The translations under genes and the position numbers were made by a program. The notes beneath the pieces are model-generated. The model was not told where the DNA came from. It worked only from the letters and a program-made list of their open reading frames with translations, and did not search any database. This document shows positions 20,783 to 53,983 of a stretch of 64,000 bases of DNA, in pieces; positions within the stretch are counted from its first letter, which is position 1; every line of letters starts with the position of its first letter. The stretch comes from an uncultured Bacteroidales bacterium (GTDB lineage: Bacteria > Bacteroidota > Bacteroidia > Bacteroidales > WCHB1-69), in NCBI GenBank assembly GCA_947169105.1, contig CAMVOL010000007.1:6005-70004 (forward strand), in the 5' to 3' direction.

Positions 20783-20886
20783 CGGACAAAGTTAAAAGTT
20801 GAGAGTTGTAGAGGCGTGGCATGCCGCGCCTCAGTGTACCGCGCCTCGGGATTAGAAGTTGGAAAGCAGGGTGGGGGAGTTGCCGG

Positions 20887-23727
20887 TTACGGGCGGGGTT
20901 TTGTCATTTCCTCATATAGACTGAACAGCCGCTCCACGATTTCCGATTCCTGCAAATCTTTTGGCCAGCCGTAGGCGGCGAGCACGGCCTCGTCGTTGGC
21001 GCGGTGGGCGCGGCGTAATTCAATTGGCATCAGCGTGGCGTCGTAAAGGTCGGCGAGACTGCTGTCGGGGTACAGCGCGCGGGCATCGAGAATGGCTTGC
21101 GCGGTTTGCTCGATTTTCTTGCGTTGCTCATCGGTCGGACTGCACCACGGGAAATTGTTGTAAACGTTTGTTACAGTAATGCGGTAATCGCTTTTCAATC
21201 GACCACAAACGGCTCTCATCCACGACATAAAAATGGTCGAAGTTAGGACACCGAAATCGTACAATGATGCATTGGGTATCATTTGCACAGAATTGTTAGC
21301 AATCACTGTATATGGCAGATAATCAATAGGAACGTATTCGCGACTTTCTCCTGACGTTAATGGAAGAAGCAGGTATTTGCCACTTTCTGGTTGTCGGTTT
21401 TCTGTGAAAAGATATGGATAAGCAGCCCATTTTCTTGTGGCCGCTTTAGGGCTTGCCAATCGAAATTGTTTCACTTGTTCTACACGGCGTGCAAGTTCTG
21501 GTATTTTCCGTAGTTCTGTAGGATTCAAGTCAGCACACCAAAGACAATAACGTTTTATGCCATGTAAAAAGGTCTGACCATTTGCTGTCTCACGTAAGAA
21601 TTTTGCGGCATCTGGGGTTTTCTTCACAATGCTATTATACTCTTCTTCAGTAAAATAGAAAGCACCATCATCTGTGCCTTGACTTCCTTTGTTCATTATG
21701 GAAACGCCCGTACATAAAGGTTCTTTCCTATTCTCTATAAACACCGTCGGCGCATCGAGCAAATACGGATTTATATTGCGAGCAACGTGTTTTTCGCCGT
21801 TTTCATCGAAAATGATTTTGTCTTTTTGTAGGTTGTTTTTATCGCTGAAACCCACAATCACGCAATGCACATGCGCCTTTTGGTTCGATTCGCTGTCCCA
21901 CCTGAACGTGCGCCACGCAAAATCAATCTGCAAATTGCATTTTTCAAACAACGGTTTCCACAATGCGGCGACCTGCTCGCCTTGCGTTATCGAGTTGGTA
22001 GAAACAAGGGCGCAGCGTGTATTTGTGCCGTTTATCAATTCCGCGGCCTTTTTGTACCACGCCCCAACATAATCAATATTGCTACCAAAATCAGGCATAA
22101 TCAATTGTAAATCATCTTTTTGTTCTTTCGTTTGGAAAGAATACCCCACAAACGGCGGGTTGCCAATGATATAGTCGTAATGGTGCGCTTCACCGTCGGT
22201 TTCGGTAGTGAAGCCGCTGAACAGTCCGCTTGTGGGCGCGGCGCCGTCGCCAAGGGGTTTCAAAGTTGCCCAGTCCATCCGCAGGGCGTTGCCCTCAACA
22301 ATGAAAGCGTTGGTGGTTAGCGGAAGGAAATCAATATTTTGGCTCAGAATGGCTTCGGTTTCGCGAATCATCTGGCTTTCGGCAATCCACAGCGCGGTTT
22401 TGGCCACGGTCACGGCAAAATCGTTGATCTCGATGCCATAGAACTGGCTGATTTTCACGTGGATGAAATCGTCGAACCCCAACAGGCGCTCGCCTCGGTT
22501 CAAGGCCGAAATCACACGGTTTTCCAACCGCCGCAGCGACAAATAGGTCTCTGTCAGGAAGTTGCCGCTGCCACAGGCAGGGTCAAGAAACCGCAATGCA
22601 CCCAATTTTTGTTGGAAATCGAACAATTTTTGGTTGCGTTCGCGTAGAGACGCACGGCCGTGCGTCTCTACAATAGATTGAAATTCAGCAGTCAACCCAT
22701 CCATAAACAGCGGGTCAATCACCTTGTGTATGTTCTGCACGCTCGTGTAGTGCATTCCTCCCTTGCGGCGTGTTTCCGGATTCAGTGTGCTCTCAAACAC
22801 CGCGCCGAAAATGGTGGGCGAGATCTCTGACCAGTTGAACGGGGCGCAATGGTCGCAAAGAACATCCACAATCTCGTCGGTAAAATTCGGTATTTCAATA
22901 TTTTCCGCCGCAAAGAGTCCGCCGTTCACGTAGGGGAACGGTTGCAGTTTCAGGTCGTAGCGGTCGCGATTCTCAATTTTGGTATCTAATGCCTTGAATA
23001 ACTTTATAATTGCATCGCGCGTGTTTTCAATGGAGAAAGAACGGATGTAGTCCTCGAAAGCCGTGCGTGTGGCAAAAAGCCCCGCATCTTCGGCATAAAG
23101 GCAGAACACCAGCCGCACGCACAGAATGTTGAGCGAGCGAAGGCTCTGCTCGTCGTTAGGGTTGATGTACTGCTTGATAAGCGCGTCGTAGAGTTTGCCA
23201 ACCAGCACGCCCGCATGCAACGAGAGTTCCTCCTCGCGGCGCAGATAGTCGTGGCGCGCATCGGCCAGGAATTGCAGCCGATAATGCTCTTTCCGGAGGT
23301 CTTTCAGGAAGATTTGTTCTGGCGCGCTGCCCGGTTTTTCAAGGTCGTAAACCAGAAATTCTTGGAAGTTGCAGACCACAATCCAGCGTGGCCGCAGCGA
23401 GTTCGGCATCTCATCGGCATAGCGTTTGGCCTGCTCGTAGGGCGTGAGCACGCTGCCGTCGCTCTGCTCGTAGGCGCGGTGCAGGTCAACCTTTGCACCT
23501 TTCTGTTCAATAAGAACCTTTGTATCAGGAATATACGCATCGATAAACGACGTGTGCGAGAGCTTCACGCGTTTTTCAAATTCAATGTATTTGGCAGGAT
23601 CGTCGATGCCTAAAACATTTTGTAGCAAGTCAATCCAGAAACGTGAGGTCTCCTGTTTCTCATCGCCTTTACCCGCCCAAAATTCGGTAAATGCAGCGGC
23701 GGCTTTTGTCTGTTCGGTTGGTGTCAT
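20887..23727 (-). CDS. MmeI-like type IIL restriction-modification enzyme (endonuclease + m6A methyltransferase + TRD)
   Basis: N-terminal IDAYIP...LIEQK nuclease motif, motif I LDPACGSGNFL, motif IV IGNPPF, MmeI-type C-terminus LADLYD...LRRAHRANDEAVLAAYG; start trimmed to MTPTEQ. Confidence 0.92.
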   Translation of the reverse strand: MTPTEQTKAAAAFTEFWAGKGDEKQETSRFWIDLLQNVLGIDDPAKYIEFEKRVKLSHTSFIDAYIPDTKVLIEQKGAKVDLHRAYEQSDGSVLTPYEQAKRYADEMPNSLRPRWIVVCNFQEFLVYDLEKPGSAPEQIFLKDLRKEHYRLQFLADARHDYLRREEELSLHAGVLVGKLYDALIKQYINPNDEQSLRSLNILCVRLVFCLYAEDAGLFATRTAFEDYIRSFSIENTRDAIIKLFKALDTKIENRDRYDLKLQPFPYVNGGLFAAENIEIPNFTDEIVDVLCDHCAPFNWSEISPTIFGAVFESTLNPETRRKGGMHYTSVQNIHKVIDPLFMDGLTAEFQSIVETHGRASLRERNQKLFDFQQKLGALRFLDPACGSGNFLTETYLSLRRLENRVISALNRGERLLGFDDFIHVKISQFYGIEINDFAVTVAKTALWIAESQMIRETEAILSQNIDFLPLTTNAFIVEGNALRMDWATLKPLGDGAAPTSGLFSGFTTETDGEAHHYDYIIGNPPFVGYSFQTKEQKDDLQLIMPDFGSNIDYVGAWYKKAAELINGTNTRCALVSTNSITQGEQVAALWKPLFEKCNLQIDFAWRTFRWDSESNQKAHVHCVIVGFSDKNNLQKDKIIFDENGEKHVARNINPYLLDAPTVFIENRKEPLCTGVSIMNKGSQGTDDGAFYFTEEEYNSIVKKTPDAAKFLRETANGQTFLHGIKRYCLWCADLNPTELRKIPELARRVEQVKQFRLASPKAATRKWAAYPYLFTENRQPESGKYLLLPLTSGESREYVPIDYLPYTVIANNSVQMIPNASLYDFGVLTSTIFMSWMRAVCGRLKSDYRITVTNVYNNFPWCSPTDEQRKKIEQTAQAILDARALYPDSSLADLYDATLMPIELRRAHRANDEAVLAAYGWPKDLQESEIVERLFSLYEEMTKPRP
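22644..22671. repeat. Perfect 28-bp REP-like palindrome GTAGAGACGCACGGCCGTGCGTCTCTAC, inside the MmeI CDS
   Basis: Self-complementary; identical copy at 53941-53968, variants at 27766-27792 and 20808-20833. Confidence 0.9.
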
Positions 23728-23762
23728 TATGCCTGAAGAGATGCTTTTTCTGAAACTCTGAA

Positions 23763-24677
23763 CTACTTGTCCGTCCCGATACGGGACTCGATAATCTTTG
23801 ACCAGAGTTTTGAAACATTGGTGCTGGCTTCGGCGTGGTTGAGGAAGCACTCCATCGTGTTCTTCAGCAGCATTGCGATGGTCAGCGGACCTACGCCGCC
23901 CGGAACCGGCGTGATGTATCCCGCCACTTCGCAGGCCGCATCGAAATCTACGTCGCCCACCAGCTTGCCCTCAGCATTACGGGTGATGCCCACATCAATG
24001 ACCACCGCCCCCGGCTTGATCATATCGGCCGTAATCAGTTTCTCTTTTCCGACGGCAACTACTAGAATATCAGCCAGTAACGTCATCGCCTTCAAGTCCT
24101 TTGTATGGGTGTGCGTCATAATGACGGTGGCGTTCTCGTCCAACAGAATCTTGGCCACCGGCTTGCCGACGATGTTGCTGCGCCCGACCACTACAGCGGT
24201 CTTACCGTCAATCGTAACGCCCGTACTCATAATGAGTTGCACGATGCCTTTAGGCGTGCAGGGCACAATGCCGTGCATTCCCTGCCACAGTTCACCTACA
24301 TTCAGCGGGTGGAACCCATCCACATCCTTGCCTTTGTCAATGGCTTGGATGATGTGGTACTCGTTAAGGTGCTTTGGGATAGGAAGTTGTACCAAAATGC
24401 CGTCCACGAGCGGGTCTTCGTTCAGCACGTGAATCAGGTCCAAAAGTTCCTTCTCCGTGATGGTCGGCTCCAACGCGATGAGACGGGAGTCCATCCCGAC
24501 GGAGGCAGCGGCGGCCAGTTTGTGCTTCACGTAACGTTGGCTGCCCTCATCATTACCGACCAGAATAATGTAAAGGGAGGGACGACGCCCGTACTTGGCT
24601 TCCAAGTTGGGCATCTGGGTACTCATTTTCTCCTTAATACGAGTGGCAAGTGCTTTTCCATCAATGATTTGAGCCAT
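23763..24677 (-). CDS. folD: Methylenetetrahydrofolate dehydrogenase/cyclohydrolase
   Basis: KDVDGFHP, PCTPKG, GRSNIVGKP, TPVPGGVGPLT. Confidence 0.97.
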   Translation of the reverse strand: MAQIIDGKALATRIKEKMSTQMPNLEAKYGRRPSLYIILVGNDEGSQRYVKHKLAAAASVGMDSRLIALEPTITEKELLDLIHVLNEDPLVDGILVQLPIPKHLNEYHIIQAIDKGKDVDGFHPLNVGELWQGMHGIVPCTPKGIVQLIMSTGVTIDGKTAVVVGRSNIVGKPVAKILLDENATVIMTHTHTKDLKAMTLLADILVVAVGKEKLITADMIKPGAVVIDVGITRNAEGKLVGDVDFDAACEVAGYITPVPGGVGPLTIAMLLKNTMECFLNHAEASTNVSKLWSKIIESRIGTDK

Positions 24678-27725: not shown

Positions 27726-27876
27726 TTTTTGTTTAAAGTTTATAAAGTTACAAGTTTTTCAGGTTGTAGAGACGCACAGCCGTGCGTCTGACTGTCATTT
27801 TCGGTATGAGGTGATAGGTAGGAAGTGAAAGTTCCCCTTCTATATAGAAGGGGTGGCCGAAGGCCGGGGTAGTAGA

Positions 27877-51892: not shown

Positions 51893-53911
51893 TCATAATT
51901 CTTTTAGCATCTTTTCGGCGGCCAAGATCTGGTCGCGGATTTCGGCCGCTTTCAGGAATTCCGTCTCTTTGACGGCCGTTTCCATCTGCTTGCGCAGCTG
52001 CTTGATGCGGTTCTGTAATTGCTCTTTGTTCAGGTACTTGATGTCACATGCTTCGGCCGCAATCGCCTCCGCTTCCTTGCGTTGGACGAAATCACCGCGG
52101 TAGCTGATATACTGGTCGGGACGGATGTCGGTGACGCCGGCTTTCTTGACGCTGCGGGGTGTAATACCGTGCTTCTCGTTGTACGCCAGCTGTTTGGCAC
52201 GGCGGCGCGCCGTCTCGTCCATCGTGGCCTGCATCGACTGGGTGATAGTATTGGCGTAGAAGATGACGTGCCCGTTGACGTGGCGCGCCGCCCGCCCCGC
52301 CGTCTGCGTCAGCGACCGCTCGCACCGCAGGAACCCCTCCTTGTCGGCATCAAGGATGGCCACCAACGACACCTCCGGAAGGTCCAGCCCCTCACGCAGC
52401 AGGTTGACACCCACCAGCACGTCAATTGCGCCCGCCCGCAGGTTCTGCAAAATCTCCACACGCTCCATCGTATCCACATCCGAGTGGATGTACTGCGTGC
52501 TGATGCCGATGTTGATGAGATAGGCCGTCAGCTCCTCCGCCATCCGCTTTGTCAGCGTGGTGACGAGGACGCGCTCGTGCTTGCCCACCGTATTTTCGAT
52601 CTCCTCCAGAAGATCATCTACCTGATTATCCGCCGGACGCACCTCAATCACAGGGTCAAGCAGGCCAGTGGGACGCACCACCTGCTCCACGATCACGCCC
52701 TCCGAACGCTCCAGCTCGTAGTGGGCTGGCGTGGCGCTCATGTAAATCGTCTGGCCCGTCAGCGCCTCGAACTCGTTGAAACGCAGAGGCCGGTTGTCAA
52801 GGGCGGCGGGGAGGCGGAATCCGTAATTCACCAGATTCTGCTTGCGGGAACGGTCGCCACCGAACATCGCCCCAATCTGCGGCACGGTGACATGGCTCTC
52901 GTCTATCACCAAAAGGAAATCGTCGGGGAAGAAGTCGAGGATACAGAACGGCCGTTCACCGGGCTTACGTTTGTCGAAATAGCGGGAATAATTCTCAATG
53001 CCAGAGCAATAGCCCAGCTCCTTCATCATCTCTACGTCGTAGGTGACGCGGTCTTCCAACCTTTTGGCTTCCAGATGTTTCCCGATGGACTTGAAGTAGG
53101 CGACCTGTTCGCCAAGATCCATCTGGATATGTATCAGTGCGTCGTTCATCGAATCCTGCGAAGTGACAAAGATGCTGGCGGGATAGATGGTGACGCTGTC
53201 CAATTTGCCCAATTTCCCTCCGCTAACGGGTTCTATTTCAAAGATTTCTTCAATCTCATTCTCCCAAAAAACGATACGGAAAGCGTTGTCGTTGTAGGGC
53301 GGGAAAATATCGACGGTGTCGCCCTTCACGCGGAAACGGGCCGGTTCAAGCATCGTCTCTGTGCGGTTGTATAAGCTGCCGACGAAAGCTAACAGGAGTT
53401 GGTCGCGATTGATGTTCATCCCTTTGTGGAGGTGGATGACGTTCTTTGCAAAATCATCGGGGTTGCCGATACCGTATATGCAGGAGACGGAGGCGACGAC
53501 AATCACGTCGCGGCGGCCTGACAACAGGGCGCTAGTGGTACGCAGCCGCAGTTTTTCGATCTCGTCATTGATGGAAAGGTCCTTTTCAATATAGGTGTTG
53601 CTGGCGGGCAGATACGCCTCCGGCTGGTAGTAGTCGTAGTAGGAGACGTAGTATTCCACCGCATTATCGGGGAAAAACTGCTTGAATTCGGTATAGAGCT
53701 GGGCGGCGAGGGTCTTGTTGTGGCTCAGCACCAGTGTCGGACGGCTGACTTGGCTCACCACATTGGCGATGGTGAAGGTCTTGCCCGAGCCGGTCACGCC
53801 GAGCAGTACCTGCGCCTGGTCGCCGCGGTTCAGCCCCTCCACCAGCTGTGCAATTGCGGTCGGTTGGTCACCCGAGGGGGCAAAGTCAGAATGTAGATTG
53901 AATTGGTTCAT
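51893..53911 (-). CDS. uvrB: Excinuclease ABC subunit B
   Basis: GVTGSGKTFT, YYDYYQPEAY, DESHVT, LLREGLDLPEV, C-terminal UVR helix; start trimmed to MNQFNL. Confidence 0.98.
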   Translation of the reverse strand: MNQFNLHSDFAPSGDQPTAIAQLVEGLNRGDQAQVLLGVTGSGKTFTIANVVSQVSRPTLVLSHNKTLAAQLYTEFKQFFPDNAVEYYVSYYDYYQPEAYLPASNTYIEKDLSINDEIEKLRLRTTSALLSGRRDVIVVASVSCIYGIGNPDDFAKNVIHLHKGMNINRDQLLLAFVGSLYNRTETMLEPARFRVKGDTVDIFPPYNDNAFRIVFWENEIEEIFEIEPVSGGKLGKLDSVTIYPASIFVTSQDSMNDALIHIQMDLGEQVAYFKSIGKHLEAKRLEDRVTYDVEMMKELGYCSGIENYSRYFDKRKPGERPFCILDFFPDDFLLVIDESHVTVPQIGAMFGGDRSRKQNLVNYGFRLPAALDNRPLRFNEFEALTGQTIYMSATPAHYELERSEGVIVEQVVRPTGLLDPVIEVRPADNQVDDLLEEIENTVGKHERVLVTTLTKRMAEELTAYLINIGISTQYIHSDVDTMERVEILQNLRAGAIDVLVGVNLLREGLDLPEVSLVAILDADKEGFLRCERSLTQTAGRAARHVNGHVIFYANTITQSMQATMDETARRRAKQLAYNEKHGITPRSVKKAGVTDIRPDQYISYRGDFVQRKEAEAIAAEACDIKYLNKEQLQNRIKQLRKQMETAVKETEFLKAAEIRDQILAAEKMLKEL

Positions 53912-53940
53912 TATCAGGTTACAGGGGGCAGGTTTCATAT

Positions 53941-53968
53941 GTAGAGACGCACGGCCGTGCGTCTCTAC
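53941..53968. repeat. Perfect 28-bp REP-like palindrome, intergenic copy
   Basis: Identical to 22644-22671. Confidence 0.9.
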
Positions 53969-53983
53969 CATTCGGTTCATAAA

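Follow-up and report, generated by a model that had tools for sequence, protein, structure and literature searches.

A translated double-foot REP at a conserved codon of an MmeI-type restriction-modification gene in rumen Bacteroidales: evidence for ancestral entry and replacement of its core

How does a palindrome that is dispersed throughout a genome come to be translated inside an intact enzyme, and what becomes of it there? This question is raised by a 64,000-nt stretch of DNA (hereafter, the window) on contig C7 of the rumen Bacteroidales metagenome-assembled genome (MAG) G000 (2.54 Mb, 80 contigs, 95.9% complete), in which a perfect 28-bp palindrome, GTAGAGACGCACGGCCGTGCGTCTCTAC (that is, GTAGAGACG-CACGGCCGTG-CGTCTCTAC), occupies positions 22644..22671 within a gene encoding an MmeI-family type IIL restriction-modification enzyme (20887..23727, minus strand). 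An initial annotation of the window took it for a repetitive extragenic palindrome (REP) of an active family inserted in a surface loop, REPs being mobilised by REP-associated tyrosine transposases (RAYTs). Our analysis identifies the palindrome as one of about 100 members of a double-foot GTAG REP family, this copy having the CACGGCCGTG core. We consider it probable that the element entered the gene in frame in an ancestor, has been carried since then as a passenger, and later had its core replaced.

The open reading frame (ORF) containing the palindrome runs from 20887 to 23850 on the minus strand and encodes 987 residues, and since homologues 99% and 98% identical to it (in a search with residues 300-560) measure 946 aa, we placed the true start at M42 (position 23727), giving an intact protein of 946 aa. 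All five MmeI parts (N, helicase spacer, methyltransferase (Mtase), target recognition domain and C-terminal) are found in this one polypeptide with Pfam E-values from 2.8e-84 to 6.6e-20, and the nuclease motif D..EQK, motif I LDPACGSGNFL and motif IV NPPF are unbroken. As the gene is intact, the enzyme is presumably active. On the minus strand the palindrome is read as VETHGRASL (V394-L402 in the numbering of the 987-aa ORF) plus the first base of R403, in the context FQSIVETHGRASLRERNQKLFDFQQKLGALRFLDPACG. The Pfam MmeI_Mtase domain begins at residue 403, which puts the peptide right at the N-terminal border of this domain and 19-21 residues ahead of motif I; the initial annotation had likewise placed it just before this motif. 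The protein aligns over its full length and in the same domain order to the prototype MmeI (PDB 5HR4; E = 8.1e-172), and MmeI has a nine-residue gap precisely opposite VETHGRASL, in agreement with the earlier proposal that the REP contributes new peptide sequence to a defence enzyme. An AlphaFold model built from 41 close homologues (mean pLDDT 68, poor in the middle of the protein, and hence used for local secondary structure only) places residues 353-361 of the 946-aa protein, i.e. 394-402 of the ORF, over the last residues of one helix (330-357), a break of three residues and the beginning of another helix (361-376), directly ahead of the first strand of the methyltransferase fold. This model, together with the nine-residue gap in MmeI, fits a peptide that lengthens a helix-turn tip; thus the previously proposed surface-loop insertion stands as far as a tolerated spot is concerned, but not as a free loop, the model giving a helix-break-helix tip (local pLDDT about 65).

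Repeats are classic sites of misassembly, and a chimeric join or a binning error in a MAG of 80 contigs might have created such an arrangement. However, two independent metagenome assemblies from other samples (L216 and L217) contain the same gene with the identical palindrome in the same context, while differing from the window at 66 and 92 of the other positions in 2841 bases (identities 97.7% and 96.7%), and in the window itself the frame is intact with MmeI homology on both sides. The palindrome is therefore not an assembly artefact, and we give this explanation practically no credence. Dinucleotide-preserving shuffles of the window gave 0 matches to GTAGAGACGCACGGCCGTGCGTCTCTAC, as against 2 in the window (22644-22671 and 53941-53968).

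We searched the genome for the pattern GAGACG-N8-12-CGTCTC with a self-complementary centre (loose) or with N10 (strict), which returned 107 and 89-90 copies, respectively, and 0 for the reversed control pattern. The family has the consensus (A)TT-GTAGAGACG-N10-CGTCTCTAC-AA(T), in which the outer arms are constant and the 10-nt centre is variable yet always self-complementary. The feet (at positions -3 to -1, G in 78%, T in 89% and A in 84% on both sides; positions -5/-4 T-rich) conform to the double-foot GTAG REP definition of 5' GT[AG]G and its 3' complement C[TC]AC. The centres fall into about 12 discrete core types of 2-13 copies each, the most abundant being ATGTGCACAT (13 copies), CGCCATGGCA (12), CGATGAATCG (10), the window gene's own CACGGCCGTG (8), TTTCATGAAA (7) and CAAAATTTTG (6). 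Dozens of copies of the CGCCATGGCA type across several genomes share the same C/A (G·T) asymmetry, indicating that they descend from one another rather than being palindromes that arose independently. By a rough ORF-based gene call, 66 of 90 copies are intergenic, though intergenic DNA makes up only about 8% of the genome; 40 of these have tandem, 18 convergent and 6 divergent neighbours, the remaining 2 being at contig ends. A mainly extragenic position with tandem or convergent neighbours is characteristic of GTAG REPs, as is a short hairpin-forming unit of 20-40 bp. Flanking direct repeats within 40 bp of 87 copies were no commoner than at 2000 random places, and we rejected a target-site duplication on this ground. 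No Rfam family matches the hairpin, and a literature search with the repeat sequence itself returned primer matches only. We also considered a link to restriction through BsmBI sites, because the arms contain GAGACG/CGTCTC, but the hexamer is not avoided (1179 observed versus 998 expected), and the REP arms account for its surplus; we thus see no indication of such a link. Two further observations concern the repeats of this genome: a trio with cores CGATTCATCG, TTTCATGAAA and GGGCGCGCCC, spaced 50-60 bp apart, is present twice, 628 bp apart, at G000:C2:78477-79243 as a tandemly duplicated REP cluster; and a second 28-bp double-foot family, GTAGGGGCGAA-N6-TTCGCCCCTAC, has about 8 copies (on C68 at 1579, and on C73, C77, C9 and C17).

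When did the element enter the MmeI-type gene? We compared 155 orthologous loci from genome and metagenome collections, and the 121 nearest protein clusters at 90% identity, query included. The element is found at the same codon in 42 of the 121 clusters with seven different core peptides, namely, RRAT (24), CHGA (8), RRAS (4), HGRA (3), RHAT, MCTS and AQAP, and at the DNA level we confirmed palindromes of the same family with the cores TGCCATGGCG in L002, CGGCGCGCCA in L004 and L006, ATGTGTACAT in L012 and CGTCGCGCCT in L127. Judging by these sequences, the element was already in place before a Bacteroidales clade of the MmeI-type gene split up, and the view of a recent insertion does not hold. 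Orthologues of 65-81% identity, those from Treponema and Fibrobacter among them, are free of the palindrome, and the family has 0 copies in the genomes of two Treponema hosts. Several copies at the site have decayed with the reading frame kept, reading AEKRRATSL in L005 and VQTRRTKSL in L010 and L037, and likewise in L008 and L022. The stretch from DPLF to LDPACG is 46 aa long in 122 of the 155 loci, and 46, 49 (the window gene), 51, 52 or 53 aa long where it bears a palindrome, i.e. 0 to +7 aa. These variable lengths indicate that the element partly replaced resident codons instead of simply adding 28 bases, an addition that would break the reading frame; the alignment thus points as much to replacement as to insertion.

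Insertions of many kinds have accumulated in the same loop ahead of motif I. In orthologues from other hosts (L026, L032, L051, L066, L072, L135 and P0107) it holds unrelated inserts 26-53 residues long, that of L066 including a repeat-type peptide, MLNQVQHDG, and that of P0107 containing a different palindrome, GGGGCGAA..TTCGCCCC.

What has happened to the element since its entry can be read from a comparison of its centre with the gene around it. We built a maximum-likelihood tree from 777 aligned columns flanking the loop on both sides. In this tree L012, with core ATGTGTACAT, is sister to L009 within a well-supported group whose centres are otherwise CG(G/A)CGCGCCA (CGGCGCGCCA-type), the window gene, L002 and L004 share one shallow polytomy, and no empty-site gene occurs inside the REP-bearing clade. 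Divergence of the centre is out of step with that of the flanks. The centre is identical (0/10 differences) between L004 or L006 and L009 at 74% flank identity, whereas pairs at 88-92% flank identity show 6-9 differences out of 10: 7/10 for L009 versus L012 (91.6%), 6/10 for L002 versus L003 (91.9%) and 7/10 for the window gene versus L002 (87.7%). At 26% divergence about six changes would be expected in the 22 bases of arms and centre, and their complete absence has a probability of about 0.001; conversely, seven paired centre changes at 8% divergence cannot have arisen by point mutation. In the five other host genomes checked that have an intact copy, as in this one, the core type of the gene, exact or with one base changed, recurs at other places in the genome: the L002 host has TGCCATGGCG as its dominant core type, the L004 host has abundant CGGCGCGCCA copies, and the L012 host contains ATGTG(C/T)ACAT. 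This mismatch between centre and flanks, combined with the recurrence of each checked centre type in the genome of its host, argues for in-place replacement of the core, and shows that the embedded REP evolves along with the repeat family and not with the gene.

The lack of change over 22-28 bases, synonymous positions included, at 74% flank identity would also be expected if the hairpin were a functional element of the gene under selection, for instance by slowing translation, determining mRNA stability or serving as a recombination joint between the nuclease/spacer and methyltransferase/specificity halves of the enzyme. The sense-strand RNA indeed folds into a strong hairpin (12-bp stem, 4-nt loop, -23 kcal/mol, z = -4.2), the element lies where two domains meet, and two paralogues with different cores (L011 and L012) coexist in one genome. 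However, the sequence is found some 100 times elsewhere, mostly in intergenic DNA, the element has decayed without loss of frame in L005, L008, L010 and L022, it is missing from the Treponema orthologues and from the characterised MmeI, and its core is freely replaced. We found nothing suggesting a function for the peptide or the hairpin in the enzyme, and regard selection on the hairpin as very unlikely; our best reading is that the embedded element is a tolerated passenger, putatively neutral.

The MmeI-type gene is not the only one in this genome in which the family is translated. At least 17 copies lie in frame inside Pfam-confirmed genes; besides VETHGRASL in the MmeI-type gene, these comprise two copies in an AcrB-type pump (SRDVPWRVST and VETHGRASLQ), one in Ogt (VETFHETSLH, which adds 10 residues relative to the Pfam profile and orthologues), copies in two Por_Secre_tail domains of the type IX secretion system (T9SS), one or two copies in each of five Fib_succ_major surface-protein paralogues, and copies in a GH53 protein, in the signal-peptide region of an MbnP-like lipoprotein and in an anti-sigma linker. 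Three further long ORFs spanning copies have no family match and look spurious. Sixteen of the copies are read as VET....SL and one as RD....VST, the third frame containing TAG. At AcrB site 1, 33 nt stand in place of the 15 nt of close homologues (+18 nt). At AcrB site 2, the boundaries are identical and the core is CACGGCCGTG here and TTGCGTGCAA in G001, and in the Por_Secre_tail-like domains of the surface-protein paralogues five different cores occur at one codon.

These additional sites bear on the main competing explanation, in which each core type represents a separate insertion into a hotspot or into the sole permissive loop, with no exchange in place. AcrB site 2 gives this explanation some weight, as two arm families are found there one base apart and in different frames among four close homologues, and so do the unrelated inserts and the other palindrome type in the MmeI loop of other orthologues, and the range of 46 to 53 aa in loop length among REP-bearing genes. 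On the other hand, the right boundary (CTCTAC followed by G) and the frame are common to three of the four MmeI core types, the exception being L012, whose right foot is broken (CGTCTCAGC), and boundary and frame are also common to both GTAGAGACG cores at AcrB site 2. Moreover, no empty-site gene was found within the REP-bearing clade, and the frame ratio of 16:1 in favour of VET..SL differs from the 1:1 expected for random entry into two open frames. We therefore judge repeated insertion to be an improbable account of the different cores. We also noted that the GTAGGGGCGAA family is translated as CRGESSFAPT or GRGESLFAPT (L107 and L117) at the AcrB loop that holds the GTAGAGACG element in a paralogue.

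Which enzyme could act on these elements? Consistent with the earlier statement that the window contains no RAYT gene, we found no PF01797 match in it. The only match in the genome, on contig C1 (L001, about 51.7-55.0 kb), is a gene of about 150 aa whose motifs NHVH, WQ and YILNQEAHH fit subclass 1.2 of the Y1 proteins (Quentin et al. 2018, BMC Genomics 19:475, PMC6006769), a subclass not associated with REPs in that study. This gene is flanked by other hairpins (TGCACACCTACGGTGTGCA) and not by the GTAGAGACG family; an 85-bp or so direct repeat (TGCAATGACGGACGGTRCGGAAACAC...GGACTGC...GATAGCG) lies on both sides of it, and three hairpins of type TGCACNCCTNNCGGNGTGCA precede it. A tblastn search with two subclass-2.4-type RAYTs detected no class-2 RAYT in the genome, an absence that is not certain in a genome 95.9% complete. 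The 18 Y1 genes inspected in relatives and the genome's own are all 1.2-like, and no family member with both arms and a self-complementary centre lies within 1.5 kb of any of them. Hence the subclass-1.2 Y1 genes are not supported as the mobiliser, having neither flanking family REPs nor a correlation with family copy number, which ranges from 0 to 126 in 41 relatives. A REPtron, that is, a cognate class-2 RAYT flanked by family REPs in the same genome, was not found, and the RAYT mobilisation invoked in the initial annotation is accordingly unsupported in this genome and genus. The family may be mobilised in trans by some other factor, or may be the legacy of a lost RAYT. The proposal of an active family fared better, as signs of recent turnover are seen in the copy numbers across the genus, in an empty site upstream of uvrB in the relative G008 (see below), and in the swapped centres.

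Taken together, we propose that, in an ancestor of a Bacteroidales clade of the MmeI-type gene, a REP copy landed at a helix-turn-helix tip shortly ahead of motif I, where it would have taken one of two stop-free frames and displaced some resident codons, and that the protein has tolerated it as a passenger ever since. In some lineages the surrounding gene then diverged by 26% with no change in arms or centre; in at least three, including that of the window gene, the whole 10-nt centre was swapped for a core type found elsewhere in the same host genome; and in others the embedded copy decayed. The sequences show that the palindrome belongs to the family, is translated in frame, is ancestral at this site and has had its core replaced, and that a class-2 RAYT is lacking, whereas the mechanism is inferred. 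As for how cores are exchanged, the most likely route is that an HUH/Y1-type enzyme acting in trans cuts the GTAG/CTAC feet on single-stranded DNA, followed by hairpin exchange or re-insertion; alternatively, short-patch conversion from other family copies could be responsible. A more far-reaching version, which we put forward only tentatively and think more likely wrong than right, is that an occupied double-foot REP behaves as an exchangeable cassette, of which the core or the whole hairpin between the feet can be swapped, with no resident class-2 RAYT as the enzyme; subclass-1.2 Y1 proteins, a transient RAYT or another system might then do the swapping. If this is true, four residues within the peptide (for example HGRA, CHGA, RRAT or MCTS) are rewritten while frame and flanks stay fixed, which would be a new source of local variation in the loops of proteins of rumen Bacteroidales, among them defence enzymes, surface proteins and efflux pumps.

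Several observations weigh against ancestral entry followed by core replacement. Decayed intragenic copies also occur in family-holding genomes (L005, L010 and L022), with 13-27 family copies still present in G046, G048 and G049, indicating that any homogenising process is not obligatory. The same MmeI loop has accepted unrelated inserts in other orthologues (L026, L032, L051, L066 and L072), and AcrB site 2 in two homologues holds the other double-foot family, GTAGGGGCGAA...TTCGCCCCTAC, shifted by one base, so independent re-insertion into a permissive loop does occur and may lie behind some of the apparent swaps. Around the peptide, the structure model is of low quality (mean pLDDT 68). The copy number of the family in the 41 relatives does not follow PF01797 matches: G023 has 37 copies and G026 has 14, both with no match, and G029 has no family copies and 12 matches.

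Three other copies lie within the window, all of which had been noticed before. The copy at 53941..53968 is indeed identical to the one in the MmeI-type gene and intergenic, located in a spacer of 72 nt that separates the stop of a T9SS-tailed gene (53984) from the start of uvrB (53911). In the relative G008 this spacer is only 3 nt long; the site is empty there, and the 66-bp block to which the REP belongs is missing, while in the relative G005 a longer insert at the same site holds two REPs of other types. The block (window 53905-53980) is bounded by a 7-bp repeat, GGTTCAT, which corresponds to the uvrB start region ATGAACC and is specific to this copy; its duplication yields an upstream in-frame ATG, and the alternative uvrB N-terminus, MNRMVETHGRASLHMKPAPCNLI-MNQF..., would read through the REP. 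The copies at 27766..27793 and 20808..20835 are real variants. The former, between divergent genes, is a degenerate copy of the same core type (CACAGCCGTG) with one change in the centre and a broken right foot reading CGTCTGACT. The latter, GTAGAGGCG-TGGCATGCCG-CGCCTC, has GAGGCG/CGCCTC arms; it lies between convergent genes, 50 nt past the stop of the MmeI-type gene, and is kept in L216 and L217.

Whole Y1 transposase genes are also found inside restriction-modification genes. Three MmeI-family orthologues of the window gene from other assemblies (P0027, P0038 and P0050) contain a complete class-2 RAYT in frame with the subclass-2.4 motifs NHVH(L/V)L...YI(D/A)NNP, flanked by REP-encoded peptide repeats. 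There are two insertion points, which follows the Mtase domain in P0027 and is close to the C-terminal domain in the other two. P0027 is a single ORF of 1248 aa (L204:2001-5747) that is present on five contigs, two of which (L204 and L205) were checked at the DNA level; its flanking hairpins, GCGGACGGCCCGTCCGC and CGCAAGCGAGCCGCTTGCG, are not of the GTAGAGACG family. Y1_Tnp (PF01797) also occurs in frame in other Bacteroidales restriction-modification ORFs, namely, L218 (G022:C10), L219 (G039:C8), L220 (G037:C100), L222 (G033:C316) and L221 (G036:C205). In four type IIG Eco57I/MmeI-like enzymes from four other Bacteroidales families, it is embedded at one conserved point, reading DH(I/M)H..WTQKF..YI(R/Q)NNR.KH between the CGNSLI motif and GNPPYV. 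For L218 this is confirmed by Pfam (MmeI_hel, MmeI_Mtase, Y1_Tnp, Eco57I and TaqI_C); for L220 a masked stretch leaves no more than the first half of the insert readable, and the remaining two type IIG cases rest on translated motifs. In an HsdR gene, a class-2 RAYT is fused ahead of the C-terminal half. Such Y1 domains within type IIG and HsdR genes may represent conserved architecture rather than accidents, and in-frame Y1/RAYT genes in MmeI-type, Eco57I-type and HsdR genes may bear on how HUH elements persist.

More generally, translated REPs provide a gauge of how well proteins tolerate junk insertions, and they can mislead annotation and alignment. The MmeI-type family is an unusually clean data set for this purpose, offering dozens of orthologues with the element at one codon, a tree and the repeat repertoires of the hosts. 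If the core exchange is enzymatic, it would imply an unrecognised activity on GTAG-footed hairpins in genomes lacking a RAYT, and a cheap way of diversifying loop peptides.

How does this element compare with known systems? Rickettsia palindromic elements (RPEs), to which the initial annotation had likened it, belong to sequence families particular to Rickettsia; the likeness is one of behaviour only, both being in-frame palindromic repeats in protein genes, whereas ours is 28 bp long, unrelated in sequence and hosted by Bacteroidales, RPE-1 being much longer. The small dispersed repeats (SDR) of Nostoc, which Elhai et al. reportedly described in 2008 as hairpin-forming dispersed repeats of 21-27 nt that are mobile-like without an obvious dedicated transposase, differ from it in sequence family and phylum. 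The host protein is like MmeI 5HR4 over its full length, except that MmeI lacks the nine residues. Closer precedents are the GTAG/CGTC REPs that lie within ORFs of known proteins and are read through, which were presumed neutral because of their position in linkers or loops and were related to the RPEs, RPE-1 being called 'longer palindromic insertions' (Di Nocera, De Gregorio & Rocco 2013, BMC Genomics 14:522, PMC3733652). Ours is likewise a small palindromic repeat read through within ORFs, but the turnover between orthologues at the same site seen here was not described there, and the GTAG REPs surveyed were from Proteobacteria, Cyanobacteria, Chloroflexi and the Planctomycetes-Verrucomicrobia-Chlamydiae (PVC) group, Bacteroidetes not being listed (Di Nocera 2013, PMC3733652). 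Double-foot GTAG REPs with TnpA_REP/RAYT of subclass 2.4 are known from Bacteroidetes and Cyanobacteria, and REP insertions that preserve the frame have been described (Quentin et al. 2018, PMC6006769). Our family likewise forms long hairpins that have GT[AG]G at the 5' foot and C[TC]AC at the 3' foot, but differs in that no subclass-2.4 gene (NH[IFV]H...YIxNNP) is found in the genome or near the family in the genus, in combining constant arms with many discrete self-complementary cores, and in that the core at one occupied codon differs between orthologues. Translated double-foot REPs are therefore of a kind already published (Di Nocera 2013; Quentin 2018), the host gene being new here, and what goes beyond these two studies is the absence of a class-2 RAYT together with the turnover of the core at an occupied codon.

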